DNA from: an uncultured Nitrososphaerales archaeon
GTDB lineage: Archaea > Thermoproteota > Nitrososphaeria > Nitrososphaerales > Nitrososphaeraceae
Direction of reading: 5' to 3'
Length of the DNA: 64,000 nt
Assembly: GCA_963841565.1 (NCBI GenBank)
Contig: CAWJCY010000001.1
Span: forward strand, 1-64,000
The notes beneath the pieces were generated by a model. That model saw nothing but the letters and a program-made list of their open reading frames with translations. It was not told the DNA's origin and did no database searches. The position numbers and the translations under genes are program-made. Shown here one piece after another: positions 1-19,057 of the stretch (its first letter is position 1; each line of letters opens with the position of its first letter).

Positions 1-43
1 TGTTGTGACTACTGTCAAGATAGGAAGGCCATTTTTGATACCT

Positions 44-620
44 CTAATGATTGTTGACAGAAGATTGACTTGTCTGACCGATAGTAGAAGAATACTTTTC
101 TGATAAGGCCTTCGGTTCTGCTTCTGCTTCTGCATCGTCCTCTGCCCAATCCTTTAATAACTGTTCTTCTTCCTTTGCTGTTAGTTTATGTATCTTGGTA
201 CCAGGTCTAACACCAAACCTATCGACATCATAAACCGTTTGAATAGGACTCTTGTGCATCCCTGGAGCCGCTTTATAATACTCATTGATTGTGGCTACCG
301 TACTTAGAATGTCAGATAGTATCTTTGCTCTGTTCATATCTTGGCTGGTTATGTGTTCTTTATCTGCTATCTCCCATTGTTTACGGAGGATTAGTTTTAC
401 AGCATCTAAACATTGTTTATAGTAATAGGTAAAGTCTGACTTAGTTATGTCATAGATGAACTGCTGCGAGATTAGTTTGAGTGCTTTGATGTCTTTTGAT
501 ATCGTAGAGTTGCTACTCCTAACTTTGCAGCTATCTCTACCTCCGTATAAGATTGGGTTACCAAAATAGCGACTTGTCTGCGTCTTTCTTCGGCTAAATA
601 TTGCTGGGGAAATTTTGCAA
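44..620 (-). CDS. HTH-domain protein, paralog of 2666..3112 (frameshift near 515)
   Basis: An alternative frame reads EERRRQVAILVTQSYTEVEIAAKLGV and joins (S)NSTISKDIKALK of ORF 44..760. This aligns with ERRENTLALLTKGMKGYEIAKEIGVDASTVSRDIQYL. Start is approximate. Confidence 0.6.
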
Positions 621-1790
621 AACTTAAATAGTTGAATCATAACAATGGCCAAACATAAAGATTTATGCAGAGTCTCTAACCATTCACTTTTCAATGAGAA
701 ATTTCGAATGTATATCCTTGCGTGACTCTTCTCTAGATGACTGACGTATAATACAAACACGGATGTCCTTTATGAGGGATACTTATAATTTGATGGTTTG
801 TTATTGAGCCCAAAACTAATGTCAAAAATGGTTCACATTACCTGAATAAAACAACACGAATGATGATCGATCTTGGAAAAGAGTCCTGACATTTCAGCAG
901 ATATGTAGATATCGCCCTCGAAATAGCCAGCCGCAGGCAGAATGTTCTGTTTGTCATCATCTTACAGATTTCGAAGAGTATTATCTCCTTCAAGATAAAG
1001 GGCTGACAGATGGTCGATCATGGCATCCAGAGGCATGTCATTATCTTGGCCAGTGTTAGCCCAGGCAGTACCGTTATATTGCCTGCCAGTATATCCGGTA
1101 GGATTTCCCTCTGTTATACTTGTTGATATCTCTAGCCATCTGTTACAGAACTGGAAACTCTACACTAACGACATCATTCTGTACCATTTGATACGTTAGT
1201 CCTTAGTCTTACCGCAAAAGATTGTTCCCCGGTACCAAACTGTTGTATAAGCCATCCGAAGAATCGTCTCCCACAAACCTATCGATAAACAATTCGATAC
1301 TGACGTATTGGGGCTTATAATTATGCATCATTCAAAAAGGCTGGGCATGATGTTGTATTAATGGAACCAAATGACCCAAATAATGAAGATGAGAGAAGCG
1401 GAGCCAGTGGTGATAATTTAAACCCCCCATTATCAATGAACATGAGCAAGAGACATTGCACTTGCCACTCTGGAAATCAATGACGTTACTAGTTAGAAGT
1501 AGTACCTAGCAGAAGCAGTATCTGAAACTACCACACCCATATTTACAGATAGATATGCAGGGCTTACTTCCTCCAGATGACCGCTAGATTTCATGGAGAT
1601 AGAAAGGTAGTGACGTATATAAAGTGGGTAGCAATTTGCAACTTACTAGGTAATCCACACACGACTAACTTTACAAAAGGTTATTACCATATTTAATAGA
1701 TTAGCGAACTATAATATAAAATGATAATATGACTTTAAGGAAGGATAGCAGTAATCTTAACGGCGGCATAAGTACCAACAACCAATCGAG

Positions 1791-2261
1791 ATGGAGATGA
1801 CAATGACTACTGACGCAGAAACCTTGGTGCGCCGCGCGTACCAGTTGGCCGAGGGCAACGTCATGGACGTGCAAGGATTCGTCGACCTGTTTGCCGACGA
1901 CGGAGAAATCAATGCCGGCACCATGAACTTCCGCGGTGAGCAGTTGGGCTGGCTCGTGGTGTTCTTGGCCAAGTTCGCTCCCGACATTCACCGTGAACTC
2001 CATCGGGTGGTCGTTCAGGACAACATCGTTGCGGTCGAGCTGGCGATCCGGGGCACCTTCACCGGGCCATACGAGTCGCCTGCCGGCGTCCTTCAGCCGA
2101 ACGGAGCCAAACTCGACGTTCCCGGCGCTGACTTCTGGGTCGTGGAAGACGGCAAGATCAAGCAGTTCAACTGCCACGTAAGCGTGAACATCCTGCTCGA
2201 ACAAATGGGCGTGCAGGCAGACTTCGCGTCCGCAATCAAAGCACAGGCAGTCGCGGGCTAA
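1791..2261 (+). CDS. SnoaL/NTF2-like (ester cyclase family) protein
   Basis: LVRRAY...FVDLFADDG...APDIHRELHRVVVQDNIVAVELAIRGTFTGP...ADFWVVEDGKIKQFNCH pattern. GGAG lies 6 nt before the ATG at 1803, the likely start. Confidence 0.85.
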   Translation: MEMTMTTDAETLVRRAYQLAEGNVMDVQGFVDLFADDGEINAGTMNFRGEQLGWLVVFLAKFAPDIHRELHRVVVQDNIVAVELAIRGTFTGPYESPAGVLQPNGAKLDVPGADFWVVEDGKIKQFNCHVSVNILLEQMGVQADFASAIKAQAVAG

Positions 2262-2665
2262 GGCAGAACCTCAATCACGCTGGTGGATCGCGGAGACCAT
2301 CTTGAGGGAGAACTACTTCGTGATGCCATTGATACTGTATTTTCAATTGTACCTCTTCATTCTTAGCAGGAAAGATTACCGTGACTTTTAAATCATTTTT
2401 TTCTTTATTAATATCATTGTTTTCAGTTTGATGGGACGCTATATCCATTGACCCTCTATCGAAATTGAATGATTACATAGGTTATCTCTCTTTTTCTGTA
2501 CTACTCTGTATTTTCCGTACTGTTCCATAGCCTTTTTTTTGAGATCACCTAATTCATGGCTCAATTACTGTCGGGGCTCTGCAAGATATTTGAATCCTCC
2601 TCAACCCTATTTGCAATATATTTATCAGTACGAACGTGAATAAATACAATAACTGCAATAATTGA

Positions 2666-3112
2666 ATGCCTAGATCTGTACCACACAACAGAATACAAAT
2701 AAAAGAAAGAAGAGAGAATACTCTGGCTCTTCTTACTAAAGGGATGAAAGGCTATGAGATCGCCAAAGAAATAGGTGTTGATGCATCAACTGTTAGTAGA
2801 GACATTCAATATTTAATTTCTCAATCACATAATTATCTAAATACCTTAGCTAAAGAAGCCCTTCCATTTATGTATCAAACTTCAATAGAAGGAATAAAAA
2901 ATGTGCTCAAAGAATGTTGGAGCATTTATACTTTGGACAGCCATGACAATAATAAAGATTTAACATGGTTTCATAAACTAGCTGCTCTAAAACTTGCAAA
3001 AGAATGTAATGAAGCATTATTCAAACTCACTGCAGAAGGGCCATCTGTAATGTATGTTAAGATTTTAGAGGAGAGATTGGAGAGGATTGAAACTAAACAA
3101 ATCAATCGGTAA
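2666..3112 (+). CDS. N-terminal HTH, all-helical protein
   Basis: GMKGYEIAKEIGVDASTVSRDI HTH signature; AT-rich TATA-like sequence upstream. Confidence 0.75.
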   Translation: MPRSVPHNRIQIKERRENTLALLTKGMKGYEIAKEIGVDASTVSRDIQYLISQSHNYLNTLAKEALPFMYQTSIEGIKNVLKECWSIYTLDSHDNNKDLTWFHKLAALKLAKECNEALFKLTAEGPSVMYVKILEERLERIETKQINR

Positions 3113-3649
3113 CTTAACGAAGAGACTTAATAGACTGGATCCTCATCTTCCTACTTCTCATGTTCCTTCCAGTAATAACAGGATGGGCTTAAGCCATTGG
3201 AAAGGTAAACCCATAATACCAATAGACGAGTGGATCAAGTTTAGAGATACATCTTATGCACTAGATTACTTTCCTGATGACTTCGATCAGACATTGTCAT
3301 TCATTGACTCCCCTATTATCGATATGAATTTGAACGCAAAAAGAGAAGGCTGGAGGCGAAAAGGCGGTCAGATGGATGGTTAAGTGATGAAGTTGGATAT
3401 GGGACGATCTGTCATGATTCAAGAGGTAATTTGGTTGACGGATTAGGCAATCCGATTAAGGAAGCAGAAGCGGTAGAGGAGGATGAAGAACAGGACAGAG
3501 ATGGGGAACTCAGACTTAGATTCAAACTCAAGCAAGACCAAGAAGACATACAGAAGTGGCATTCAGACTATATTCAACTAATGGAGTATGCCAAGAATCC
3601 GAACTATATTTCTTATTGTGCTGATACTGAGGCCCAAAGAATCTTTTGA
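3087..3649 (+). CDS. hypothetical protein (ORFs 3087..3383 and 3431..3649 probably one gene, frameshift ~3310)
   Basis: The frame of the second ORF is open upstream (PYYRYEFERKKRRLEAKRRSDGW...) back to a C-run at ~3310. Confidence 0.5.
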
Positions 3650-3707
3650 GGACATGTTCGAAGTGTTCAGGATGTCGTTAAAATTTTATTATTAATCAGA
3701 GGGGAGA

Positions 3708-3905
3708 CTACCCTTCATCACATAGAGGGGTCAAGTGGGGAGAGCCTAATGCCTTCTTAGCTGCGTCAAGATGTCTCTGTACTCCTTCACCATCGCCATT
3801 CCGTAAAGCAGACTGTGCATCATTGATATGATCCATTGCTTCTCCAGTGCTCAAGTGTAAAACCAGAACTAGGACATACAAGCGGTTCGCAATGAAACAT
3901 CCCAA
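3708..3905 (-). CDS. small, possibly secreted helical protein
   Basis: Hydrophobic N-terminal stretch followed by the helical hairpin EAMDHINDAQSALRNGDGEGVQRHLDAA. Confidence 0.35.
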   Translation of the reverse strand: MGCFIANRLYVLVLVLHLSTGEAMDHINDAQSALRNGDGEGVQRHLDAAKKALGSPHLTPLCDEG

Positions 3906-4119
3906 TAATATGGTGCAGATGAATATCCTTGGCCATTCTATCTCAATAGTTCTGGTGTGCTAATAGCAGTTAGATTGTCCAAATGATTCTAATAGACTTG
4001 GTTCTATAATATCAATATCTATTAAAGAGATCTCAATAAAAGCGACATTCAATGTAATTGATCTAATAAGATGTCCATATGATACACTACCAAGAGATAA
4101 TCCTGATACATACATCATA

Positions 4120-4650
4120 TTGCCAAAACCTCTAAAGGGTATACTCTTTGTCTCATTCGATAATCCATGGTATATGTCAGGTCAAGTCAGGGTTAGGGGA
4201 ATTAGCGGCGGTAAATATCCATTTCATTATCTGGAGATGATAGATTATGTTTTTGGCAGGGAAGAGAATACGATTGAAGTATGCAGTGGCAGTGTTAACG
4301 AGAAATGTTTCACTGTGGATCTCAATCCAGAAACAAATCCTCAGATCGTTGATGATGGGCAGACTCTATATAAAATTCCAAATGACACGTTCAATAGATG
4401 GAGATGTGATCCTCCATACAATGAAAACACGGCCAGAAAGATGTACGGAACCGATCTACCTAAACCAATAAGATTACTCGAGGCAGGTGCAAGAGTCTGT
4501 AGAAAGGGATCTCTGATGTTCATGCTGCTAGGTCCAACAAACTATCAGTGGCACCCTAAAGGAACGAAGCGAATCGCCTACATCGATATGACAGTTGTTC
4601 CGGACAATGAGGTTAGATGTCTTAATGTCTTTTATAAATATGGAGATTAA
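4120..4650 (+). CDS. minimal amino-methyltransferase (N6A/N4C type)
   Basis: Motif I-like EVCSGS, VDLNP, and motif IV DPPY; no room for a large target-recognition domain. Confidence 0.7.
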   Translation: MPKPLKGILFVSFDNPWYMSGQVRVRGISGGKYPFHYLEMIDYVFGREENTIEVCSGSVNEKCFTVDLNPETNPQIVDDGQTLYKIPNDTFNRWRCDPPYNENTARKMYGTDLPKPIRLLEAGARVCRKGSLMFMLLGPTNYQWHPKGTKRIAYIDMTVVPDNEVRCLNVFYKYGD

Positions 4651-5286
4651 TATTTAATGCATGTATATTGATATTTCCAAGTGGTAGTTCATTACAATAA
4701 TGACTGCTGAAAATATGAAATGATCTATGATAGATGATCTAGAAAAATAAGGCTAACTAAATTATTGATTAGTTAATAGGTTCTAGTCGATTACAGGTCA
4801 CATCACGATCATTAGATGTTATTTTGTAAGGGTTAGGAAGAATGAAGGAAGTTGTTACTCTTTGTGCCATTCGTTATAGCAAATACTTTCCAAAGATTGC
4901 CGCAGTTCTCCTTATTTTTATGAGTGTAGGAATCGTTGTAGGAATAATGAGCTGTATTAAAACAAGTAAAATATTAGCGGTGCAAGATTGCCACATGATT
5001 ACAAGTAGCTGATTTAATCCATCTTCTTCTACTATCACATATAAGGGGGGGTACGCCAAAATAGGTAGTTAATGACCATGTCTTCTTTGCGATAAAACTT
5101 CACACCCCCTACCCTTGTTCCTCTCATTTCGATTCTTCCCCTACCGCTACATCATCTGGATCTTTATCATCTGAATTCACTTCACTATCTGAATATACAC
5201 CATCGTTTGCATCCCCTTCCTCCTCAGCATCCTCATCATTCGTATCTATGTCCTCCTCTTCATTCTCGTCCTCAGGATGAGAATGA

Positions 5287-8136
5287 TTACATTGAAGGAG
5301 ATGGTATCGGGATTCCAGTCCTTCTGCTAAATTCTTCATTCAACGATGCTAACAGATCTTCTAACCATCGAAAATCTTTGTTTTCTAATTCCTTATTCTC
5401 AATTCTCTTCGTATTCTCTTTTTCAATCGCATCAATGTCTTCAATGAGTCCCTTGGTTGAAATGTCATAATCAACATGCTCTGCCTCTATCTTATCTACT
5501 TCGTCTGCTGCAGCTATTGTTCCAGCCTTTTCAGCTAACTTATTTGTTATAATTAAACTTGGTAGCATAACATACACTATCTTCTTAAGACTTAGGTTAT
5601 AATCCGCTGTATCGAATAATTCATGGAAGCTCGGAAGAATGAATTCATTCCAAAACCCTTCTGCTCCAACATACGCTATTACATTATCTATTTCTATGCG
5701 TCTGCCATATTTCCCACCAGTTAGAAGCTCCCAGTCCTCTTCAGGTATCAATCCATCATCGTACATCTGCTCTGCAGTTGTAGCATGGTTATTAGCACAA
5801 TAATCTACGTTTACCTTCTTTTCACTGCCCTTGGGTTTGGGCAAATCCTCTACAACTTCATCTATTGGAACATTTAATCTCTCTAAGGTATCAATTCTTA
5901 TGCCAATTCTGGTTATGTTAGGCACTTCTCTCGCCATAGCCCATCCCGAAAAATCATCATCTGTAAGTATCGCCATCCTAGCTCCTTCCTTAGTTGCTAG
6001 TTCAGAGAACTCCTTTGCGTTATCTGTCAGAAAACCCTTGGTATAACACAGAGCAAAACCGTATTTATCTGCCCAATATGTAAGAAGCTCGACAACACCT
6101 TCCTTTTCTATTATGAGAATAAATGTAGCTATCTTCTTTATCCTTTCCAGTTGCTTGAATGATACATCGTAAATCTGTCCTCTAAAGTATATGTGAGCAC
6201 GCGGTGCTTCGTATATTCCAAGTGCTCCTCGTTTTACTCCTATCTTACCTGTTTTTACAAACTGACCATTTACAAGTTTTAATTCAGGCATCTCATCACA
6301 GATGGTCTTAACGAGACTCTGCAGGTACTTTCTTTCTACATGTATCCCACGACGTTCTAGCTCTGGTCTGTATCGATATACTGGAGTGCTGGTATTCCAA
6401 CTATCAGTGTTTTTGATATATGGCTCCTTTAACACTTTTTTATATCGTTCTTCGACGAGATACCCTGCAAAGAGAGCTTTTGCTTCTAATTTATTACCAT
6501 CATCATCCCGTCTTTTATTGCTACCAGAACACATCTTAGAGAGCAAATCAACGAGATCGTAGTAGAATGGATTGAGGTCTATATCCGATTTCCCATAGTC
6601 AGTATATTGTAATTTCGGACACCATAAATTAACTAAAATTATGCTCCTTTCCTTCTCTGGTCTACCATCCTTACCATGAGAATATCCACACTCTTTCAAA
6701 AGGTCCCTTACGCCATATGCCTGCTTCTTAGCACCGCTTTTTGTAGTCCATTCAAGAGAATAGCCATCTGAGAATGAATGGTAATGATTTGGAGCGGAAT
6801 TAATTCCTTCACAATAAAACAAGTAGTAAGGTAGACTGTATGTATGTATGACAGCAACTTCTATTATATATGGAACGCAAGTATCAGTAGTATTCTTAGA
6901 TATATCTGATTTATGATCGTGGTTGTCTGAGTAATAATATCCAATCTTAGTCTTGTATTTTATATGCTTAGGATCATATCCAAGCTGACTAGCTCTTGCA
7001 AATAGAGCTTGTTCTCTGCCCTTAATACTGAATGGGAGTAAATCTCTCTTTAATATGGACTGGTCAGTGGGGGGACCCATAGTATCACGCAACCTTAGAA
7101 ATATGTCTCGTATTTTTTCTTCACTTTCTTGTTTTGATAGTTGTTGTAACTGTCCTACAGGAACGAGCAAATCATCTTCTTTCTTAAGAGAACCCCCTTC
7201 TTTGAAATGACTTATGAGAATATCGTACAATATCATACTTTTATCTTCAATGCCGTAGATTAGATTTTCAAAAGTCGATAGATCAGTCCAATATATGCTC
7301 GTATGTCGTTTACTGTTAGTATTGCTAATAGAGAGCTTTTGGGTTGCGGGTAATGTCACATCCCAGCGCTCATCATCATCAGTAATGGAAGTCACTACAT
7401 CAAAATGAAATGTAATGTGGGTATTGAGCAGTGCATATTTTATGAGAACCAGCTTAATATGGGTTAATTCAATTATATTATCATTATAGGGCAAGTGTGT
7501 CTCAATCTCAGTGAAATTATCATTTGTTGCTGTCGTCTTTTTTATAATAGTACAGTAATTACGTCCCTCGATCTTATCCACAACAGCCCTTATCTCAAAT
7601 TCTTCTTCGGTCCCATTTCTTATGATAAGTGGTTCGTTCCATCCTTCTTTTCCATTGTATTTTGTGCCCAGGGCATAAGGAATGCCCACTTCCTCTTTTA
7701 GAGCATCGCCCTGCAGACCTCGACTTAGCTTGAAAAGATTTCGCTTACTAGAATGAAATCTATCAAGATCATCAAATATAGCATGGATTCGTTCTTCAGT
7801 AAATCCTATATCCTTTGAACCAAAGTTGGAGTTTCTTACCCTTATTACGAGATAGTTTTGTTCTTGATTGTACTTTACATCCACAAAGATTTCTGCATTT
7901 CCATCAAATGAAGATGGGAAATTAACTTCAGAGAAATCCAATGCATTATCAATATTTTCCTTTAATCCAAAAACTGCTAGCTCATCCTCGGTAGCCCCAG
8001 TACGTTTGCAGACTCCGGCAAGAGTGAAATAGTCCATGTTGCTTCTCTCTGATGTGAATAGCGTATTGGAAGGTGAAGTAGGAGAATGGGGGTCAGGGTT
8101 TTTTGCGTTAAATCTACCATGGCCGTTGTGCGTCAA
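5287..8136 (-). CDS. fused TopoVIB-TopoVIA type IIB topoisomerase (Topo VIII-like); probable acidic tail extends to 5124
   Basis: GHKL N-box LKENIDNALD and SSK...SRGLQGDALK; transducer-region PYIIEVA, GINSAP, LWCPKLQYTDYGKS; WHD PVYRYRP (Tyr ~587); Toprim ILIIEKEG...TKGF...LTDDDFSG. Confidence 0.85.
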   Translation of the reverse strand: MTHNGHGRFNAKNPDPHSPTSPSNTLFTSERSNMDYFTLAGVCKRTGATEDELAVFGLKENIDNALDFSEVNFPSSFDGNAEIFVDVKYNQEQNYLVIRVRNSNFGSKDIGFTEERIHAIFDDLDRFHSSKRNLFKLSRGLQGDALKEEVGIPYALGTKYNGKEGWNEPLIIRNGTEEEFEIRAVVDKIEGRNYCTIIKKTTATNDNFTEIETHLPYNDNIIELTHIKLVLIKYALLNTHITFHFDVVTSITDDDERWDVTLPATQKLSISNTNSKRHTSIYWTDLSTFENLIYGIEDKSMILYDILISHFKEGGSLKKEDDLLVPVGQLQQLSKQESEEKIRDIFLRLRDTMGPPTDQSILKRDLLPFSIKGREQALFARASQLGYDPKHIKYKTKIGYYYSDNHDHKSDISKNTTDTCVPYIIEVAVIHTYSLPYYLFYCEGINSAPNHYHSFSDGYSLEWTTKSGAKKQAYGVRDLLKECGYSHGKDGRPEKERSIILVNLWCPKLQYTDYGKSDIDLNPFYYDLVDLLSKMCSGSNKRRDDDGNKLEAKALFAGYLVEERYKKVLKEPYIKNTDSWNTSTPVYRYRPELERRGIHVERKYLQSLVKTICDEMPELKLVNGQFVKTGKIGVKRGALGIYEAPRAHIYFRGQIYDVSFKQLERIKKIATFILIIEKEGVVELLTYWADKYGFALCYTKGFLTDNAKEFSELATKEGARMAILTDDDFSGWAMAREVPNITRIGIRIDTLERLNVPIDEVVEDLPKPKGSEKKVNVDYCANNHATTAEQMYDDGLIPEEDWELLTGGKYGRRIEIDNVIAYVGAEGFWNEFILPSFHELFDTADYNLSLKKIVYVMLPSLIITNKLAEKAGTIAAADEVDKIEAEHVDYDISTKGLIEDIDAIEKENTKRIENKELENKDFRWLEDLLASLNEEFSRRTGIPIPSPSM

Positions 8137-8282
8137 AATCGATGGCCCCCTTCTCCTACTTCAAAAGAGTTAACGTCGAGAGAGCCGAGATCATCATTAT
8201 TGTGATCTTCTCGAATTGACTCACAATCCGTTGGGCCAAAATACTCCATGACCTGATTTTCCGATGATAGTTTATCATTCAT
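8133..8282 (-). CDS. 49-aa acidic ORF translationally coupled to the topoisomerase gene
   Basis: ATG at 8282 reads MNDKLSSENQVMEYFGPTDCESIREDHNNDDLGSLDVNSFEVGEGGHRF. Its TGA overlaps the TTG start of the topoisomerase (TTGA). Too short for the ORF track. Confidence 0.5.
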   Translation of the reverse strand: MNDKLSSENQVMEYFGPTDCESIREDHNNDDLGSLDVNSFEVGEGGHRF

Positions 8283-8303
8283 TTTTGGTGAATAGATCTT
8301 TCA

Positions 8304-9167
8304 TCATCGATGTCGTAACACAGCTAATATCCGTTCAATCACATCCTGTGGAATCCGTGCCGAAAACTGATTCGTCTGAGGATTATATTCGACTGTGAGT
8401 GGAAGAAATTGAGAACCGAATTCGATCTCGGTCTTTCCCTTTATGATTTTCATTTCATTAGATTTTGAGTTTCTTAATTCTTTTTGTAATTGAATATACT
8501 TCTCTTTCCACATCAAATTCTCACTGGCAAATTCTTCAAATTGTGAGCACTTTGTTTGTAAATCGTTTACCTGCGTTTGTAAGGCTTTGACTATATCCCC
8601 TGTGTTTTGTTCCACTTGTGGTTCTATATCTGACTTGACTTCTCTTGGTACATCTGAGCTCGCATCACATACTCCATGCAGATTGGGATTGTTATTACTA
8701 CCCGGATCATCTATTTCATTGACAATTATGCTCTCGCCTGTAGATGATACTTCTATTGGAATCTTATTGTCATTTCGCGAATTGTTCGCTATTTGACTAG
8801 TAGATTGTTCCTTAACTTCCTTCTCGTTTGGATATTTTTCTGCAAGGATCTTTTCAATATATCTTGTGCTAATGTAATCTCCCAATTCACGAGCTAGTGT
8901 AGCGCGAAGCAAGTCCTTGGGATACCGATGCTTTTCAAGAAGAGCGGCTAGATCAAGAATAATCTCTTTTTTACGCCTTGTCTCGTAAAATTTTTTGTGT
9001 TCTTCATACTCCTTGAGCTCGTCCCGCGCTTTCTGAATGTATTCAGATATGTTTTCAGGTAAAGGCTTCTGTTCACCTGCGAATAGCTCTGGTTCTGATC
9101 CCTGTTCTTGTTCTGAATCGATTGAGATATTGTTCTCCTCCAAAGAATCATGAGTTCTATCATGCAT
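8304..9167 (-). CDS. hypothetical protein with helical N-terminal domain, disordered linker and coiled coil
   Basis: 287-aa ORF inside the element operon; heptad-rich VKALQTQVNDLQTKC...LQKELRN. Confidence 0.7.
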   Translation of the reverse strand: MHDRTHDSLEENNISIDSEQEQGSEPELFAGEQKPLPENISEYIQKARDELKEYEEHKKFYETRRKKEIILDLAALLEKHRYPKDLLRATLARELGDYISTRYIEKILAEKYPNEKEVKEQSTSQIANNSRNDNKIPIEVSSTGESIIVNEIDDPGSNNNPNLHGVCDASSDVPREVKSDIEPQVEQNTGDIVKALQTQVNDLQTKCSQFEEFASENLMWKEKYIQLQKELRNSKSNEMKIIKGKTEIEFGSQFLPLTVEYNPQTNQFSARIPQDVIERILAVLRHR

Positions 9168-9173
9168 AGACTT

Positions 9174-10107
9174 CTATTCGCCTCCAGACCATTGATTGTG
9201 GTTATGATTATGATTTAGCTTCTGTTCAAGAGCAAATGTTAAGGTAGTCTTAGGATATTCTTGCCTTTCCAGCCTTATTCTAGTCTTGTGATCTTTCATA
9301 GTTTTGCTGTAGACGCGAAGTAATAGCATCATGTGCTATCCCCCAAGTTGTAAAGAATTTTTCGCCAGTATACTCTACAGAAGCATCAGCACCGAAGTGC
9401 CACATGGTCACAATCCACTCCATGTAATCAGGAATCTTATTGACGGTACTCGACTTAGCACTATCTTGCGAAACTAGTGTTGAGAGTCTTTCTCTTACAA
9501 CGGCAAGGGCATTGGTAAGCCGTATAATGCCTACAACGTCAACAGCAATAGGACTATAAGAGCAGCCTACGATAACACTGACTGTATCTGTCTTGTGTAT
9601 GACAGCCTTCACATCAAGATTCTCTATCTGCCATAGTGGTAGAGAGATGTCTTTGCTAGTGGGATTGATATCATGGTAATAAATCTCATTATTTGCAGCA
9701 TATGACAAAATAGCATTGTATATGTTCGGAACATGAAACTTGAGTCTGATATCATGAACTGAATTTTTGTCTAATGGTAAGTCTATGATAATTCGATAGA
9801 TAGGACTGTTACTGAGTTGAGGCATTGTATTACACGGAATAGCCCCCATATGGTGACGTGTCATTCTGTTCCTATCACCAAAGGTTACATCCGCGAGCGT
9901 ATAGAACGTAAGATTGGATTTGTAGGCTACCTTCACCATCCCTTCCTTCATCAACTTAGAAATTTTATTGCGAAATGTTCCATGCGTTACCTTGTAACAG
10001 ACGTCATCAACTTTGAAATTGAGGAAATCAATATACGAAAAAGGCCTATATTCACAGTGCACTATGTCATACATACGCATCAACACGGCGTTAGTTAGAT
10101 CGGTCAA
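9174..10107 (-). CDS. wHTH + Rep_trans-like rolling-circle replication initiator/relaxase (frameshift ~9325)
   Basis: N-terminal wHTH (GTFRNKISKLMKEGMV), then HDIRLKF and TMWHFGAD. Removing one base gives LRVYSKTMKDHKTRIRLERQE to a TAG at 9174, matching the Rep_trans RIYxK...RxE catalytic motifs. Confidence 0.6.
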
Positions 10108-10119
10108 TACTTGATCCCT

Positions 10120-10353
10120 CTATGAGTCTCCTTCCACACCTGTCATTGTCACTGACTTGTCACTGACTTTTTGTCCACCACTTGTGCTAAGATCCTTATG
10201 ATATTCTCTCACTGAAATACCATGTTCACATTTCTTACAGTTGCAAACGATCCTGTGATTGATATTCTTGTTAGTCCAGATACAAGGGCAAGTTTCACAA
10301 CTCGGGATGCATTCTTCAACAACGAGGTCTTGTATCTCTGGAATGTGTTCCAT
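10120..10353 (-). CDS. small Cys-rich, putative Zn-binding protein
   Basis: CETCPC...CNCKKCEH; start overlaps the stop of the upstream RHH gene. Confidence 0.6.
   Translation of the reverse strand: MEHIPEIQDLVVEECIPSCETCPCIWTNKNINHRIVCNCKKCEHGISVREYHKDLSTSGGQKVSDKSVTMTGVEGDS
10146..10167 (+). repeat. 11-bp tandem direct repeat (TTGTCACTGAC x2) with palindromic GTCAnTGAC core
   Basis: Read directly at 10146-10156 and 10157-10167, ~40 bp upstream of the rep-like start. Confidence 0.8.
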
Positions 10354-10478
10354 TAGTCTAGCTCCCTTTTTTGCTGTTCAAGTAGTTTCGAGATTAAAGC
10401 ATCCATTGTATCAGCCCATCTTGCTCTTTTAGTTAGTTCTTCATATGTGTGGTCTGATACTCTGATTAACTTCGTCAT
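10353..10478 (-). CDS. 41-aa ribbon-helix-helix (CopG/VapB-like) DNA-binding protein
   Basis: MTKLIRVSDHTYEELTKRARWADTMDALISKLLE strand-helix-helix pattern; first gene of the operon. Confidence 0.7.
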   Translation of the reverse strand: MTKLIRVSDHTYEELTKRARWADTMDALISKLLEQQKRELD

Positions 10479-10494
10479 TACAGTATATATTGTA
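10479..10494. promoter_or_regulatory. near-perfect palindrome TACAGTATATATTGTA, candidate operator in the divergent promoter
   Basis: 7 of 8 pairs are complementary. It abuts the RHH start codon and lies between divergent genes. Confidence 0.45.
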
Positions 10495-10526
10495 AACAGG
10501 TCTATTGATTTAGAGGAGGTCACTTT

Positions 10527-11651
10527 TTGGAAAAGAAGGTGCATGACTATGAAATTGATAAAGCCATTTGTAAGTTTCTTTTAAAATATGAGCGTAACAA
10601 TATGTCAAGGAGGAAAATGAAGCGGGTTGTAGAAAGTAGTAACTATCTAGGAAGAAAATTAGGGACTAGGTTATACGAATTTCATATCCAGAGGTTGATA
10701 GAGGCCGGATATATTGTTGAAAAGAAAGATGAATGGAAACGTGGAAAGAAATCGCCATTGCTCCTAACTAATAAAACTCGTGGACAATTAAGACTTAGCA
10801 ACTTGAACATCGAATTCAAGCAACGAGAACATCCCCAATTAAATTCATATACTAAATTGAAAAGATTTCATAACACAAAAGAAGATAGGTTCAAAAGTGA
10901 ATTAAAACGAAACAGGATATACTATATAATAATGCGTGTATTGTCCATCGAAACACCTAACAAACATTATAGATATTCGGGTTTATCAATTACAGATATT
11001 ACTAATGCAAGGTATGACGGCCATGCGTTCTACTCTCTTCGGCTTGAATACGATAGGGAAATGATTCAAGAGTGTCTTAACAACCTGAAGAGAGAAAAAA
11101 TTGTAAGTGAAATTAAGATACCAGTAGATGACGAATCACGGTATAAACTCGTCGGTCTTAGGTGGAAATCATTTGTGACCGAATGCGCTCAGTTGCTAGA
11201 AGATAGTGTATTGATGCGCCTTCACATTAAATGGAAGAATCTTAGACCTTGTAGTTCTCAGGAGAGAATTTGGTATGAATCATGTTGGGGTGATAGAGAC
11301 GCTAATGGACATTTGATTAGTGTCTATAAGCATTATAAAGAAAATCAGGAAAAATCTAACGAGCAATACAAGGAGCAGATTCTAGACCTTACAATGCACC
11401 TTGATTACAACATTAATCAAAGTCATAAAAATCTTGAATCAAAATACTCCGATTTAGCAAGAAGATGTTCTTCCGTTTATAATATGATAATAGAAACGAT
11501 ATACCCAGAGTTTCTTCGTTTGGAGATAGAGAAAACGCTCGATAACCGTAAAAATAAAGACATGAAATATCTAAAACTACAGTCTGCTCGTTTCGATGAC
11601 GTTCTAACATTCCATGATTCTGTTCAATCCATGACTTACGAAGTTGATTAG
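10527..11651 (+). CDS. basic, multi-wHTH putative regulator of the element
   Basis: YEFHIQRLIEAGYIVEKK and IQECLNNLKREKIVSEI...RYKL wHTH-like segments; divergent from the rep operon and convergent with the integrase. Confidence 0.55.
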   Translation: MEKKVHDYEIDKAICKFLLKYERNNMSRRKMKRVVESSNYLGRKLGTRLYEFHIQRLIEAGYIVEKKDEWKRGKKSPLLLTNKTRGQLRLSNLNIEFKQREHPQLNSYTKLKRFHNTKEDRFKSELKRNRIYYIIMRVLSIETPNKHYRYSGLSITDITNARYDGHAFYSLRLEYDREMIQECLNNLKREKIVSEIKIPVDDESRYKLVGLRWKSFVTECAQLLEDSVLMRLHIKWKNLRPCSSQERIWYESCWGDRDANGHLISVYKHYKENQEKSNEQYKEQILDLTMHLDYNINQSHKNLESKYSDLARRCSSVYNMIIETIYPEFLRLEIEKTLDNRKNKDMKYLKLQSARFDDVLTFHDSVQSMTYEVD

Positions 11652-11660
11652 TAACCAGAT

Positions 11661-13019
11661 TTATGCTTGATAAATTCCTTGCTCAATCAACCGTTTTGCT
11701 ATCTCTTGCTTACCCTCTGGCTGGTTTATAGAACCTAGAATTGTTAAGAGACTATGCATCTGTGACTGCATAGTGTTTAATCTCCCTTCAAGAGATCTAA
11801 ACTTTGCATTTTCCTGTTCCTTTATTTCTTCATATCCATCGGCGGTTAATGGATAACTGCATTTTGAACAGTATTCGCAATCTATTGCATTTATGAAAGT
11901 ACATCTATGACAAGAACAACTGAATTGGACTTTTTTGTAGTTCCAGATTTGAAATGATTCCATTTTCTAAAAGAATCTTTTCCTTCAAATTGTTACCCAT
12001 TCTTGCCTTGATATATCTAGAGGGTTGTTTTGAATTCATAGACCATCTGACTTTCTTCTTTAGAGCATAATCAGGAAGATAGTCAGAATCATGCGAGATA
12101 GAGGAATGTCTAAGGCAATAGGGATTGAATCGTTTTGTATTAATTAATAATTGTAGTCTTTCTCTTTCAGCATCATCAGTTATTGAACCAGTTTCGATTA
12201 ACCGTTTTATCCGCAATCGTAGTTGTTTCATCATAGTCCAAAGCGCTTCAGGTTTGATGGGTGCGCCATTATTTAGGCTACAGATTAGTCTTGCCTCTGG
12301 AGCTATTGCGAAAGGGATGTTCATTGAGCCAATCTCTAACATAAGGAAATGAAAAGGTTAGAAGAATCGGGCCAGAGCCTGTTTTTGCTTGATGAGGAAT
12401 TTCTCCTTCCCCATACCGTTCATTTAGTCTGATATGCTTTAGGCGCAGCAATGTGATTTCATGATTGCGCCCATTCAGATCCCAAAGGAGTGAGAGTATA
12501 GCCTTATTGCGCTTGTGGGGTTCATATTTGATAACTGTCTGAAGTTCCCTGATATCCCAGATCTCGTGTTCTCCGTACGGGCTTAATCTTTTTGTTTTCT
12601 TCTTCTTGATATTCACGAACTCCGGCGTACACCAATCAGTCGATGACGACGGTTGATCTTTCACCTGCTCAAAGCTACAATTATGTAACCACCTAAAAAA
12701 ATGCTTAATACGGACAAGATAGTCATTCCATGTCGTAATCCATCGTTGCTCAGGATCATTCAGAGTTGGATTTGATTTTCTTATCAAGAAATTTGATTAC
12801 TTGTTCTTTAGCGGAAATTTGATAGAAGGTTGTCCCATATCCTATGAACTCAGCAAATGCAATCACGGCTTTGAGGTTGTTATTCTGATGTCTTTCCGAG
12901 GTAGCATTACCTTTCATATAAGAATGGAAATCTTCAATTAACTTTGAATTCATAGAATTTGGCACTCTGTCGTAAATATGCCTGACCGTAGTGGAAAGCG
13001 TAGTGGGCATCAGCACCAT
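11661..13019 (-). CDS. tyrosine recombinase/integrase with C-terminal Zn ribbon (three +1 frameshifts)
   Basis: NGRNHEI (R), AKTG (K), PYCLRHS, VRWS and PSRY (Y) motifs, then CHRC...CSKC. Four ORF-track fragments each join by removing one base. Confidence 0.9.
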
Positions 13020-13102
13020 CTCCTTTCACGGCGGTTGTTCGTCATTGTGTATGTTATTAGTACATCTAAGGTCTTCAGAAGTATATGAACCCACGTAGTA
13101 GG

Positions 13103-13176
13103 TGGGCCCAAGGGGGTTTGAACCCCTGGCCGACCGGTTATGAGCCGGTCGCTCTACCAGGCTGAGCTATGGGCCC
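13103..13176 (-). tRNA. tRNA-Ile2 (CAU)
   Basis: GGGCCCATAGCTCAGCCTGGTAGAGCG ACCGG CT CAT AA CCGGT...GGGCCCA cloverleaf. The GGGCCC acceptor stem is typical of archaeal Ile rather than Met tRNAs. Confidence 0.9.
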
Positions 13177-13236
13177 ACGAAAAATCCCTTAAGTGGTTCG
13201 ATATTAAAACGTTTGACTTAGTATCATTCCTGATAG

Positions 13237-13908
13237 CTAATTTCTGATTGAAAGGTAGGTATCACATACACCGTCTAAAATCATGTTTTGGCATTTTAAA
13301 GATATTGAGGCTGCGTCCAATATAGTTTCATGTTGAGAGCCAGGCATCAGTTCCAGAAGAGAACGCCAGAGTTCTGCATGCTCGATGTCGACTTTTTCAT
13401 GTATTCTGAAATAATTTAGAGCGTTATCATTTCGAACACCATAAAATTTTACCAGGCCTTCAATCTTTTTCGTGCTTATCTCAGGCAGCTGCTTTTCATA
13501 CGCATAAAGTGTCGATATTCCAGTAGATAAAGATCCTCGAGTCAGCTCATTCATCCCCGCGATTGCATCTTGAGTCTTTTTGGAACATTCGTAATCATAG
13601 AGTTCATTTTGTATTACCCCGATCGATTCTGCAAAAGATACCCAGGGGGCGACGTGTACCTTCTCTTCCTCCAAATTATGCTTTATTGCGGTACTTAATG
13701 CATATTTTCTTTCTAACTCAGGTGTTACCTGTTTAAGCACATTACCAACGAGAGTAGGGACGGCTTTCACCAATTGAAAATATTCTTTGGAATACCCCCG
13801 CAAATCCTCCATCGAAAGTGATCCTGCTGACCACATTTGGTAGAACCTGTGCTTCAGTAAGCTCTTGTCCTGAATGTCAGCGTCCACGGAGTGTATTAAT
13901 AGCGACAC
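13237..13908 (-). CDS. CADD/PqqC-like heme-oxygenase-like dimetal protein (putative pABA synthase)
   Basis: LLKHRFY, NLEEE..H..W, LYAYE...KKIEGL..FYG, YFRIHEKVDIEH. Confidence 0.8.
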   Translation of the reverse strand: MSLLIHSVDADIQDKSLLKHRFYQMWSAGSLSMEDLRGYSKEYFQLVKAVPTLVGNVLKQVTPELERKYALSTAIKHNLEEEKVHVAPWVSFAESIGVIQNELYDYECSKKTQDAIAGMNELTRGSLSTGISTLYAYEKQLPEISTKKIEGLVKFYGVRNDNALNYFRIHEKVDIEHAELWRSLLELMPGSQHETILDAASISLKCQNMILDGVCDTYLSIRN

Positions 13909-14030
13909 ATTAAATGAATATTTAGGAACCTATAGAAAAACCTATCTTTATTTGCGGCGTTAAACGCACAATCGCTGCTCCGTAGACCTCAAAATCAACT
14001 AATATCATTAATTGGCAGTCCAAGAAAGGA

Positions 14031-14038
14031 TTTTATTG
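14031..14038 (+). promoter_or_regulatory. TATA box (with upstream purine-rich BRE) of tRNA-Glu
   Basis: AAGAAAGGA-TTTTATTG ~25 bp before the tRNA 5' end. Confidence 0.55.
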
Positions 14039-14062
14039 GAAACCACAAATCAAGTCTTACGT

Positions 14063-14169
14063 GCTCCGGTGGTGTAGAAATTGGCTATTATCAAAAGCCA
14101 GTGCACAATCCGGTCAAGCATTGTGGCCTTTCGAGTCGCAGATCCCGGGTTCAAATCCCGGCCGGAGCA
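14063..14169 (+). tRNA. tRNA-Glu (UUC) with a 31-nt intron at position 15/16 (14078..14108)
   Basis: Removing 14078-14108 gives a canonical cloverleaf with anticodon arm GTGGC-CT TTC GA-GTCGC. The junctions form a BHB-like motif (GTGT/GCAC helix, AGA and AAT bulges). Confidence 0.9.
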
Positions 14170-14248
14170 CACCTTCCAATTTGGGAAATTATGTAAAAAG
14201 CATTAATAACCGAACTGATGCATTGGGTACCTAGGCACTGATTTAGGA

Positions 14249-15119
14249 TTGAGTAAGAGAAACCAAGGCGCAGATCCGGTCCTAGCATTGGTCGGAGACT
14301 ACCTATCAAAGATTGACAACTCGTTAATGAGCGAGTTAGGCAGATACTCATGGTCAGAATTCTATGGGCCACTGATTTATGCATGTGAAGGAGGAAAGAG
14401 AATTAGGCCATTGATCCTATTATTGGCTGCCGAAAGTATCAAGATTTCAATGCGAGATAATTCAAACTTAACCGAAGATATTTTTTTGGCGGCATCAGCA
14501 ATAGAACTCTTACACACAGAGTCAGTCATTCATGACGATATAATTGATCAGGAAAACTTACGTAGAGGAAAACCATCTTTTTATGTCAAGTACGGATATA
14601 ACAGGCAGCATCCTGACCGCGGATTTTGTACTGGGTATAATCCTTAACATCGGGTCAAAAATCAATAATCCAACTGTTTCAGGCGAATTGTCCAAAGCCG
14701 CGATCAAGATGTCAGAGGGTGAAATGATGGAAATCCAAATGGGAAAGAATCCAGATATTAGCATACGCGACTATATACAAGTATTGGAGAATAAGACTGC
14801 ATCCTTATTTGAAACATCTTCCAAGATAGGGGCTATACTTGGAGGAGGAACAGAAGATGAGATTCATTCGATGGCAGCGTTCGGACATTTGCTTGGAATC
14901 GCTTATCAAATTCATGATGATTTAGTTGATTGGAACAATGAAGACAGGCTTTTTAACGCATTGATAAGAAATAACAATACCTCTTCTGAGATCGTTACTG
15001 AAATGGAAGATCTCTATCATGATTATTCCAATAGGGCTAAAGACGAGCTTCGAAAGCTGCAAAATAGCCTTCCTAAAAGTTACCTAGAAAGGCTATCAAA
15101 TATGAGTGTCGTCTTTTAG
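14249..15119 (+). CDS. polyprenyl diphosphate synthase (frameshift ~14604)
   Basis: GGKRIRP, FARM VIHDDIID..LRRG, NKTASLF, SARM YQIHDDLVD. Confidence 0.88.
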
Positions 15120-15286
15120 TTCAGCGGTTCAATTGCAATAATTTCTGTCCCTCTTATTTCATTGCTCTAGCGTTGGGATCAACACACTAAGGATTTGAGA
15201 CTAATCTCGTAAAGAATTTGTCAAGTGCGAGTTACGAAATCAAGTCTTCTCAGAATGCTGGCCTCAAATCCTTTATAACATTTTAC

Positions 15287-16894
15287 CTAGCTGAAACTAG
15301 TCCCTGTTGAGTATGCAATGATAAAAGATGAGGACGTAACTGGAGGGAGTACTCCAGAGGAATTAACAATGCTTTCTCCGGTACCAGTCGAATTCGTGGA
15401 TATCAATGTCATTGTTTCCGCGAGATTGGGCACAGCTTCTGACGCGAATTCAAGGATTGGAGCATGCCAAATTCCAAATCCTACCATGAAAACAACACCG
15501 AAAATCAAAACTGCTACCATTGCCTTTGGCTCTTTTACACGACTCATATCAGGAGATTCTTCCATGTACATTTTTCGCATGATCCAGGCATAATAAGCGA
15601 GAGACAACGCGCTATTGAGGACACCTGCTATTGCGAGATATGGCCCCCATTCAACCAATGGACCACTATCTATTGCGGCTCCAAATAGCACCAGCTTGCT
15701 CCAGAATCCATTTAGAGGAGGAAGCCCTGCCAATGCCAATAATGAGATCGACAAGCATATGGCGGTGATCGGCATTCTCCTGCCAAGGCCCCTATATTTT
15801 TCCAGGCTATAACCTGCAAGAACAACTGCCACACAGGCGGCGGCAATGAACGCAGTGGATTTCATGACTGCATGATTCATAATGTGAAATAGCGATCCTG
15901 TGAGGCCTTCTTGAGAGTAGGGCGCCACGGCCATGCCTATCAGAATATAGCCTGCTTGTGCAATGCTTGAGTATGCAAGCATCCTGGTAACACTTTTTTG
16001 CATAATCGCCGCCAGATTGCCCAATGTCATCGTAAATACCGCTAATATCGCCAAAGTCACAGTCCAGTCGGTATTCAAGGCAAAAATCCCAAGAATAATG
16101 ACACGAATTGCTGCAGCAAATCCTGCCTTCTTTGTTCCGGCTGCTAGTAGAGCACTGATAGTGGTAGGTGATCCTTCATAGGTATCAGGTAGCCACATGT
16201 GAAATGGTACAAGACCCATCTTAAAGCCAAAACCAGCTATAAATAACCCTATAGCCAATAATCCGACCGGAACTAGTTCAGGTCCAAGTGTAGCAAATGT
16301 AGTAATGGCTACCCCGATATTTGTTGATCCCGTTATGCCGTACACTAATCCAATGGCAAACACAAGAATAGCTGAAGATAGCGCTCCAAACATGAAATAT
16401 TTGATAGCGGCCTCATTTGAAATGGGATCCCGCTTCGCAAAAGCGGCTAGTGCATAAGTAGGTATAGACATCAACTCCCATGCAACCAATAACATTACCA
16501 AATCTGTTGAATATCCAATGAGTACCATTCCGATACTTGATAGCAATAATAGCGAATAGTAAGCCGCAGGATTTGCCCTCCCTTTCATATAAGTCCAGGA
16601 TGAAGCAGCAACCACAATGGAGACAATGAGAAATGCGACTGCGAAAAATGACCCGAACATATCATCGGTGAGAACTTCATTACCAAATGCAACAGCTGGG
16701 AGGACTTCGCCACTCAAGACTCTAAAAATAACGATACCAATGGAAAGGACAAGCGCTCCAAAAGCAATCATGCTGTATATCTTGTTATTGTTGGCACCTC
16801 GCTCCTTCCTTAATGCGTCAATGACTGGAATGCCAAGTCCAACGGCAGCAAGTATAGTTGTTACCAGAATTGGTGTAGATAGTATTTCTACCAT
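15287..16894 (-). CDS. nuoN: complex I subunit N
   Basis: WELMS, EAAIKYF, FKMGLVPFHMWLPDTYEGSP, RMLAYSSIAQAGY. Confidence 0.95.
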   Translation of the reverse strand: MVEILSTPILVTTILAAVGLGIPVIDALRKERGANNNKIYSMIAFGALVLSIGIVIFRVLSGEVLPAVAFGNEVLTDDMFGSFFAVAFLIVSIVVAASSWTYMKGRANPAAYYSLLLLSSIGMVLIGYSTDLVMLLVAWELMSIPTYALAAFAKRDPISNEAAIKYFMFGALSSAILVFAIGLVYGITGSTNIGVAITTFATLGPELVPVGLLAIGLFIAGFGFKMGLVPFHMWLPDTYEGSPTTISALLAAGTKKAGFAAAIRVIILGIFALNTDWTVTLAILAVFTMTLGNLAAIMQKSVTRMLAYSSIAQAGYILIGMAVAPYSQEGLTGSLFHIMNHAVMKSTAFIAAACVAVVLAGYSLEKYRGLGRRMPITAICLSISLLALAGLPPLNGFWSKLVLFGAAIDSGPLVEWGPYLAIAGVLNSALSLAYYAWIMRKMYMEESPDMSRVKEPKAMVAVLIFGVVFMVGFGIWHAPILEFASEAVPNLAETMTLISTNSTGTGESIVNSSGVLPPVTSSSFIIAYSTGTSFS

Positions 16895-16937
16895 TTTCTT
16901 TCTGCTTGCCTCCTCTTCTTTCTCTCCCTACTCATCT

Positions 16938-19055: not shown

Positions 19056-19057
19056 AA

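Follow-up and report, generated by a model that had tools for sequence, protein, structure and literature searches.

A Topo VIII-like topoisomerase gene on a decayed element, probably one of a tandem array, at a tRNA gene of an uncultured Nitrososphaerales archaeon

The stretch of DNA analysed here, which we call the window, comprises the first 64 kb (64,000 nucleotides) of contig C1 in a metagenome-assembled genome (MAG) of a soil ammonia oxidiser, an uncultured Nitrososphaerales archaeon (GCA_963841565.1, contig CAWJCY010000001.1); this source genome, G000, amounts to 2.05 Mb in 13 contigs and is 88% complete. Base 1 of C1 is base 1 of the window, and there is hence no contig sequence to its left. 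Near this end lies a candidate integrated element whose largest gene codes for a predicted Topo VIII-like topoisomerase. Open reading frame (ORF) and tRNA calls bear out the layout that an earlier sequence-only reading had described, namely a tight minus-strand row of genes, a divergent ORF, and a tRNA gene with integrase-like sequence at its 3′ end. The features, from right to left, are as follows.

13101-13176, minus strand: tRNA gene with anticodon CAT (CAU), found by ARAGORN and Rfam (RF00005, 69.9 bits); the integration target
13091-13120, no strand assigned: att core of 30 nt, identical to G000:C2:86060-86089
11661-13019, minus strand: integrase pseudogene, tyrosine-recombinase-like, in four frame pieces, from comparison of ORFs with intact homologues
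10527-11651, plus strand: divergent 374-aa ORF, possibly encoding a protein of the winged helix-turn-helix (wHTH) class, with below-threshold matches only
10353-10544, minus strand: small ribbon-helix-helix (RHH)-like protein, 63-aa ORF, from a VapB_antitox match (E 0.011) and a reading of the sequence
10120-10353, minus strand: Cys-rich protein of 77 aa, with no family found in Pfam, NCBIfam, or PHROGs
9280-10107, minus strand: 275-aa ORF of the 'rep-like' (REP) gene, the frameshifted gene spanning 9174-10107; winged helix plus an uncharacterised domain
8304-9167, minus strand: acidic, helical protein of 287 aa, from the ORF call
8133-8282, minus strand: 49-aa ORF, with nothing supporting a real gene
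5287-8136, minus strand: Topo VIII-like topoisomerase, 949-codon ORF (called gene 916 aa, with its ATG at 8037)
5124-5339, minus strand: acidic 71-aa ORF, the detached C-terminal tail of the topoisomerase, in frame in the copy of the related genome G004
4120-4650, plus strand: 176-aa ORF, 96% identical to the G004 element copy, with a weak DNA-methyltransferase PHROG match
2608-3650, plus strand: multi-copy module of ~1.04 kb, with a 148-aa helix-turn-helix (HTH) ORF and a broken second ORF, from matches in same-genus genomes

Single-sequence searches of Pfam, NCBIfam, PHROGs, and PDB with the proteins of this row returned almost nothing, and the analysis is therefore based on homologue families, profiles, and folds. 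The topoisomerase sequence alone has no match in Pfam, NCBIfam, PHROGs, or a PDB phmmer search, and only profiles and folds were informative. These confirm what had been proposed for the large gene, that it is a Topo VIII-like B-A fusion; the 949-codon ORF is predicted, from sequence and model, to encode a single-chain type IIB topoisomerase in which Topo VI-B and Topo VI-A are fused. An AlphaFold model built on 39 sequences (predicted local distance difference test score, pLDDT, of 84.7) has Topo VI-B chains as its top Foldseek matches (E 1.6e-18). A VIA-align search of 48,161 chains matched the B half to Topo VI-B (2zbk_B, Z 24.2, model residues 1-582; 2q2e_B, Z 23.4) and the C-terminal half to Topo VI-A (1d3y_B, Z 14.8, model residues 515-808, 249 aligned, root-mean-square deviation 3.4), followed by an MksG-type nuclease (8b7f_B, Z 13.1) and Spo11 (Z 10.6). 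By hhalign, the family profile aligns with a 906-aa ORF of Halalkalicoccus jeotgali at 99.8% (E 9.7e-28), the 643 aligned columns reaching from the N box to the Toprim domain. A TBLASTN search of 72,556 plasmids found just two records, H. jeotgali plasmid 5 (query 4-903, 25.7% identity, E 1e-4) and Pseudomonas sp. Leaf58 pBASL58, both of which are named as Topo VIII carriers (PMC7671362).

Conservation of individual residues was counted over 39 aligned family members. The N box is kept (E27 in 35/39, N31 and D34 in 39/39), and the G2 box is of the GxxGxA type (G107xxG110-D-A), with both glycines in all 39 members and A112 in 38. The switch lysine, K483 (39/39), is aligned to a segment of S. 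shibatae Topo VI-B, YKSAGK, which we take to hold the switch lysine of that protein. Around the catalytic tyrosine, R613 is present in 38/39, position 616 is L or I, and Y617 is present in 37/39, and the Toprim residues E644 and D693xD695xxG698 are all invariant (39/39). The tyrosine is followed by a basic residue at +2 (29 R, 8 K) and then by Gly620 (37/39), not by Arg at +3. The C-terminal T2BI box reads R780-[I/V]-E782-I-D784-[S/N]-V786, in which the R, E, and hydrophobic positions are kept and the changes relative to RVELNAM are N to D, A to S/N, and M to V.

Homologues of this protein number at least 142 at E 1e-3 or better (8000 candidates scored), and those that are named come from Nitrososphaeraceae, Nitrosopolaris, or Bathyarchaeia MAGs; the 30 related loci in species-representative genomes are all in Nitrososphaerales-type MAGs, bar one labelled Nitrosopumilales. 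G000 itself encodes a canonical Topo VI-A elsewhere. It also has a second Topo VIII-like gene, at C12:8551-11313, which matches the family profile at 1002 bits, with the final ~90 positions of that profile missing and one TAA within the match; no REP or integrase of the families described below was detected near it.

The att core consists of ~10 nt beyond the tRNA 3′ end and ~20 nt of the tRNA. To its left, ~25 nt (13066-13090) that form the integrase-proximal arm are also similar to contig C2, on which there are three more att-like sites, at ~81620, 83866, and 99003. All four C2 sites share the orientation of the tRNA, there is no tRNA at any of them, and those at 83866, 86072, and 99003 are followed by one conserved right arm, which we read as a putative distal attP arm. 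An att repeat of the tRNA 3′ end had been expected to the left of the window; the exact 30-nt copy is indeed present in the same genome, although on C2, and there is none in window 1-13090, where a direct-repeat search of 1-14000, three core patterns (up to 3 mismatches), and a distal-arm pattern gave no second copy. In related genome G003, the tRNA (C10:850532-850649) is followed after ~32.7 kb by an att copy plus integrase homologue (883381-884442); on a single contig of G008, the tRNA is accompanied by an intact integrase and, ~35 kb off, by a distal att; and G004 has the same integrase at the same tRNA, the 95-96% identity that it shares with the window starting at about position 4008. Stray att copies occur in several other same-genus genomes, and a related element is found at a tRNA-Arg gene in locus L038. 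None of the conclusions draws on genome G013, which is unpublished. Integrase-like sequence at the tRNA and att copies in the same genome thus uphold the idea of a tRNA-integrated mobile element. Arrays that arise by re-use of a single att site are known for tyrosine-recombinase elements (PMC6563490). We infer that C1 continues C2, the start of the former being joined to the end of the latter; this would give an array from C2:81620 to C1:13100 of ~35 kb, in which the topoisomerase element would be the youngest member and would probably start at C2:99003 (~17.7 kb).

Several further observations concern C2 and the att junctions. The 12.9 kb between two of the att-like sites (C2:86090-99003; L004:2090-15003) encode a 1036-aa histidine kinase, a Rieske protein, a response regulator, a UDP-glucose dehydrogenase-like protein, and an F5/8 type C protein; no integrase was detected in this segment, which looks like the cargo of an older element remnant. 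The ORF at the C2 end (C2:103266-103571; L004:19264-19572) belongs to a ~100-aa Cys-rich family with up to ~19 matches per genome within the genus, many of them with internal stops. A bridge from C2 to C1 through this ORF, which runs off the contig, was considered and rejected, as the ORF is a nearly complete member of that multi-copy family; the gene probably caused the assembly to break here. The public runs listed include no RNA run carrying this sequence, and none carries more than 24% of the sampled words. When contigs from four soil or rhizosphere runs were compared with window 1-20000, only fragments matched, and they gave no junction bearing on excision or on the C2-C1 join. A 5.2-kb contig from run X6, a rhizosphere metagenome, carries the integrase 5′ end, the proximal arm, and the att core (window 12802-13120) at ~92% identity and continues past the core not into a tRNA but into an arm like that to the right of C2:81620 and of the G008 distal att; this is either an attP, with the element circular, or a junction of tandem elements in another strain.

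The sequence-only reading had placed a tyrosine integrase against the tRNA. Integrase-like sequence does adjoin the tRNA 3′ end; however, it is not one gene but four ORF pieces (12756-13019, 12278-12787, 11905-12342, and 11661-11963). The same integrase is a single ORF of 459 aa in G008 and 451 aa in G004, beside the same tRNA, and relative to these the window has three net +1 frameshifts (~12760, ~12303, and 11926-11916), none of them in long homopolymers. The family comprises 1585 proteins, many of them named integrase/recombinase XerD by JGI. Tyrosine recombinases have the catalytic set R...K...HxxR...H/W...Y, and by eye the family alignment offers NGRNHE (Arg), HQAKTG (Lys), YCLRHS (Arg-His), and SRYIK (Tyr). 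No intact integrase of this family was found elsewhere in the 88%-complete G000 assembly.

The lesions extend to other genes of the row. A frameshift in REP at ~9322/9323 leaves the conserved last ~44 residues, including nearly invariant positions, in a separate ORF (9174-9332). The topoisomerase gene stops at a TAA that results from a 4-nt difference (~5290), with loss of the acidic tail and an intact catalytic core; the 52 acidic residues after the TAA continue the reading frame in other homologues and in the G004 copy, which is 95-96% identical, and here they lie within the separate 71-aa ORF. ORFs of at least 200 codons cover 75% of the host DNA at 13.2-64 kb compared with 54% of 1-13.1 kb, and neighbouring host genes are unbroken (for example, ORFs of 546, 729, and 654 codons), which makes a general assembly indel problem unlikely. 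Of the 30 related loci, 12 have a topoisomerase gene split into at least two ORF pieces. With the integrase, REP, and the topoisomerase 3′ end all frameshifted, the element is a decaying one that is fixed in the chromosome, and the proposal of an excisable replicon is not sustained. Judged from its sequence, the window copy appears dead as a mobile element, and only the topoisomerase core could still yield a protein.

Linkage counts were taken over the 30 related loci, most of which are on short contigs, and they give minimum numbers that should not be read as frequencies. In eight of the 30, the topoisomerase gene has integrase-family sequence nearby, within 4 kb upstream in L035, L038, L041, L048, L054, L056, and L063, and 5.2 kb upstream in L036. 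REP lies near the topoisomerase gene in six, directly upstream in five and nearby in one, across topoisomerase identities of 31-89%. The 287-aa protein that separates REP from the topoisomerase ORFs in the window was not found in the 30 loci at E 1e-4 or better, and REP directly abuts the topoisomerase gene in L035, L038, L045, and L062. The row in L038 is tRNA-Arg, intact integrase, REP, and topoisomerase gene; no exact att repeats of 14 nt or longer were found within the 10-kb flanks of L038 and L056. L041, L056, and L063 have the integrase and the topoisomerase without REP, and the recurrent pair is therefore integrase plus topoisomerase, with REP frequent but dispensable. Co-occurrence of rep-like and Topo VIII-like genes is thus seen in part, in the six loci with REP nearby, although several loci have no REP upstream.

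REP itself had been taken for a rolling-circle initiator, a role that we could not substantiate. The family is large (one search gave 755 matches, another 941 clusters at 50% identity) and its members are typically ~300-335 aa. The REP protein has no Pfam, NCBIfam, or PHROGs match, and 39 of 40 diverse relatives have no Pfam domain; the fortieth has Rad51/RecA-type domains and no Rep family, and may be a fusion or a gene-calling artefact. The ESM Atlas returned only an unnamed Nitrososphaerota cluster (0.76). A model made from a 96% identical intact homologue is poor (pLDDT 59), and a fold search with it picked out a winged helix at the N terminus (Z 6-7) and, over residues 110-226, a weak match of TBP-like type (Z 7.5), all below Z 8 and thus below the level that is meaningful for the fold tool. 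No HUH or HxH motif occurs in the columns conserved across the family. Kept across members 26-47% identical to the reference are H109, C173, W222, H228, D232, Y257, K259, R269, and E271, and the polar residues among them might represent a metal site and a Tyr-x-Lys motif of an unrecognised nuclease or initiator family. It is plausible that REP is a DNA-binding initiator or regulator, and possible that it is a new nuclease.

Taking these observations together, we consider it likely that the locus is a decayed, tRNA-proximal member of a tandem array of integrated elements carrying a Topo VIII-like gene. The array would have accumulated at one tRNA(CAU) gene, and the member next to that gene would occupy window ~4000-13100, with an uncertain left limit. 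It would have entered by tyrosine-recombinase-mediated recombination between attP and the tRNA 3′ end, over a shared core of at least 17-30 nt, and each new arrival would displace older elements outward, leaving partial copies of the tRNA. The recurrent cargo would be the single-chain topoisomerase, with a Bergerat ATPase fold, a transducer, a 5Y-CAP domain, and a Toprim domain. By analogy with its enzyme family, it may act as a homodimer, in which Tyr617 and Mg2+ bound by E644/D693/D695 would cut and reseal duplex DNA, and may relax or unlink the DNA of a circular episome during its replication. Three frameshifts in the integrase, one in REP, and loss of the acidic tail would then have left the element fixed and decaying.

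A number of results weigh against this reading. The att partner is on C2, not on C1, and the proposed C2-C1 join is drawn from orientation and from the relatives; no end overlap joins any contig to the start of C1. The G008 flank beyond the distal att has no blastn match of 150 nt or longer in G000, and the only flank similarity is 41% over 70 aa. Hidden Markov model matches of the integrase are weak (NCBIfam XerA, E 0.0016; SAM-like domain, E 0.004; Pfam Phage_integrase, E 0.026), and its profile found no recombinase in PDB, where the only match was between a zinc ribbon and eL40 (E 0.32). The linkage counts, being lower bounds, also belong here. As for the enzyme, the G1 box DxGxG is not conserved among the 39 members (D76 in 8 and G78 in 16), and ATP-dependent strand passage is therefore uncertain; the DDGPG of the H. 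jeotgali reference aligns to the variable stretch 73-78 of the family, and an invariant Asn69 stands at the strand end where the G1 Asp is placed by reading the secondary structure of the model, not by residue-level superposition. The topoisomerase dN/dS of 0.10-0.17 versus three relatives, from which it follows that the family has been under purifying selection, is a sign of past family function and not of function of the window copy.

Three other explanations of the locus deserve comparison with a decayed array member. Least credible, in our judgement, is the model with which the analysis began, an intact, excisable plasmid-like rolling-circle replicon in which the 275-aa protein nicks and the topoisomerase is an accessory. 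In copG-rep cassettes a small RHH gene is followed by one for a larger DNA-binding protein, and the small RHH-like gene and REP resemble that order; REP lies directly upstream of the topoisomerase in five loci and nearby in a sixth over the same 31-89% range of identity; and H109, C173, H228, D232, and Y257-x-K259 could form a metal site and a catalytic Tyr. However, the conserved REP columns hold no HUH or HxH, neither REP nor 39 of its 40 relatives match any Rep family (the fortieth having Rad51/RecA-type domains), and the fold is only a winged helix and a weak TBP-like match below Z 8. Moreover, the REP frameshift falls just before the Y-x-K segment, the integrase is broken three times, and several loci with sequence upstream of the topoisomerase (L041, L042, L044, and L051) have no REP there. 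It is also improbable, if a little less so, that the frameshifts are assembly or sequencing errors and that the living organism carries an intact, mobile element. The genome is a 13-contig MAG, each of the five lesions is a small indel, and the best public run covers 24% of sampled words; nevertheless, the integrase indels are outside long homopolymers, the adjacent 50 kb of host DNA has the long unbroken ORFs noted above (546, 729, and 654 codons), and broken topoisomerase or REP copies are common in independent assemblies (12/30 loci, with REP split in L035).

A more serious alternative, although still an unlikely one, takes the protein for an ATP-independent DNA-cleaving or -nicking enzyme, Spo11-like or MksG/JetD-like, that serves recombination or competition of the element or host defence. 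Consistent with this, the G1 box is degenerate, with invariant Asn69 at the placed Asp position, and the C-terminal half matches the MksG-type nuclease 8b7f_B (Z 13.1). PF09664, which we take to be the JetD-type Toprim domain, is found in 3/120 among the homologues listed. The GxxGxA G2 box is associated with the A. degensii enzyme, which only linearised plasmid DNA (PMC7671362), and two of three Topo VIII enzymes assayed showed ATP-independent relaxation or cleavage (PMC4117785). Nonetheless, the N-box Glu (35/39), Asn, and Asp, the switch lysine (39/39), and a full-length transducer are kept, which is hard to explain without nucleotide-driven dimerisation, and the gene accompanies an integrase and not Mks/Jet partners. 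Returning to the decayed array member and its relatives, we tentatively suggest a broader view, which may well prove wrong: soil ammonia oxidisers of the Nitrososphaerales may harbour a third branch of single-chain type IIB enzymes, large and uncatalogued, that is related to Topo VIII and has a nucleotide pocket rewired by an invariant Asn where the G1 box would have Asp, its own C-terminal interaction box, and often an acidic tail. With one integrase family, such an enzyme would form the minimal core of small tRNA-integrating episomes, and it, not a Rep, would provide the key replication or maintenance function, possibly free of ATP.

The identity of the target tRNA admits two answers. Two CAU tRNAs were found in G000, that of the window and one at C7:82816-82891, and both start with G1:C72. 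Archaeal initiator tRNAs have an A1:U72 pair, which neither has, and the initiator tRNA therefore appears unassembled or undetected. The window tRNA shares its acceptor stem with tRNA-Ile(GAT), and the other CAU tRNA shares the anticodon arm; on these comparisons the window tRNA would be either Met or Ile2, and which of the two CAU tRNAs is Ile2 is ambiguous.

Some of the smaller features can be described further. A homologue of the divergent 374-aa ORF, 64% identical, adjoins the integrase in G004. The call of an RHH-like protein comes from one weak match (VapB_antitox) plus a reading of its sequence, and its true start is probably an internal Met, giving ~41 aa. In the 2608-3650 module the second ORF is in pieces of 98 and 72 aa; the module has sharp ends and about a dozen matches in G005 alone, and in a contig from one soil run position 3649 leads back to 2611, consistent with a tandem or circular form. 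Homologues of its HTH ORF occur downstream of the topoisomerase gene in L035, L048, and L064. The module is probably like an insertion sequence, and may be an insertion instead of a part of the element. Further to the left, a stretch of ~33 nt (805-837) has 86-94% identity to many same-genus contigs, and one of the matches (G010:C167) overlaps a stray att copy on the opposite strand.

The window copy is an ordinary decayed integrated element and of little use by itself; the wider interest is in its family. We know of no genetic tools for ammonia-oxidising archaea, and a recurrent small integrative element could become a vector backbone for them. The natural variants of the ATP pocket and of the dimer-interface box are relevant to the question of why DNA is relaxed by some Topo VIII enzymes and only cleaved by others. 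With at least 142 proteins in mesophilic Nitrososphaerales, the family also greatly enlarges the archaeal Topo VIII set, which stood at four in a published census (PMC7671362).

That census lists 82 Topo VIII sequences, and the four archaeal ones in its Table 1 are all from Euryarchaeota (Takahashi et al. 2019, PMC7671362). According to a 2021 review, no archaeal Topo VIII has been characterised and this is the only topoisomerase subfamily considered unique to mobile elements, and a table there gives Nitrososphaera viennensis one type IIB enzyme and no extra one (PMC8185306). In a survey of integrated elements in Thaumarchaeota, the topoisomerases in the text available are of type IA only, in two integrative and conjugative elements, with no mention there of type IIB (Krupovic et al. 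2019, PMC6563490). The main texts searched hold no description of Topo VIII on Nitrososphaerota elements, and within these bounds the Nitrososphaerales Topo VIII-like branch appears undescribed. The combination at this locus had been put forward as one not recognised as described; this is so for Nitrososphaerota in that literature, although in bacteria Topo VIII is known next to an integrase on decaying elements that target, and are integrated in, tRNA genes (Gadelle et al. 2014, PMC4117785).

The family resembles Topo VIII in having Topo VI-B-like and Topo VI-A-like halves in one polypeptide, in its N box, GxxGxA-type G2 box, switch lysine, R-x-x-hydrophobic-Y, and Toprim E...DxDxxG, and in its location next to an integrase on mobile elements that sit in tRNA genes and are often decaying. 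Unlike Topo VIII, to which it is only ~25% identical, it has no conserved DxGxG G1 box, a box that together with the others is conserved in 93% of Topo VIII sequences (PMC7671362). Where the published sequences have Arg at +3 from the Tyr, often followed by Pro, the family has a basic residue at +2 and then Gly, and its C-terminal box is R[IV]EID[SN]V compared with the published RVELNAM. Its hosts are Nitrososphaerales, in contrast to the euryarchaeal hosts of the archaeal sequences in the census text (PMC7671362), and its carriers appear to be small, with an integrase-plus-topoisomerase core, as opposed to conjugative plasmids.

Among known elements, the cryptic integrated elements of Thaumarchaeota are similar in that they target tRNA genes by means of a tyrosine recombinase, measure between a few kb and tens of kb, carry wHTH and RHH genes without an obvious replication protein, and can form arrays through re-use of one site; they differ in that one has a rolling-circle endonuclease and in that type IIB enzymes go unmentioned in the text available (PMC6563490). 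With Topo VI (A2B2) and Spo11 the family shares the folds of both halves and the catalytic residues, although Topo VI consists of two separate subunits. Mini-A proteins (Takahashi et al. 2019) likewise combine 5Y-CAP and Toprim domains on mobile elements, and the Asp of the C-terminal box (ELD) in their motif xWELDAL resembles that of the family; Mini-A, however, has no B half, whereas the Nitrososphaerales family has a complete, fused one.

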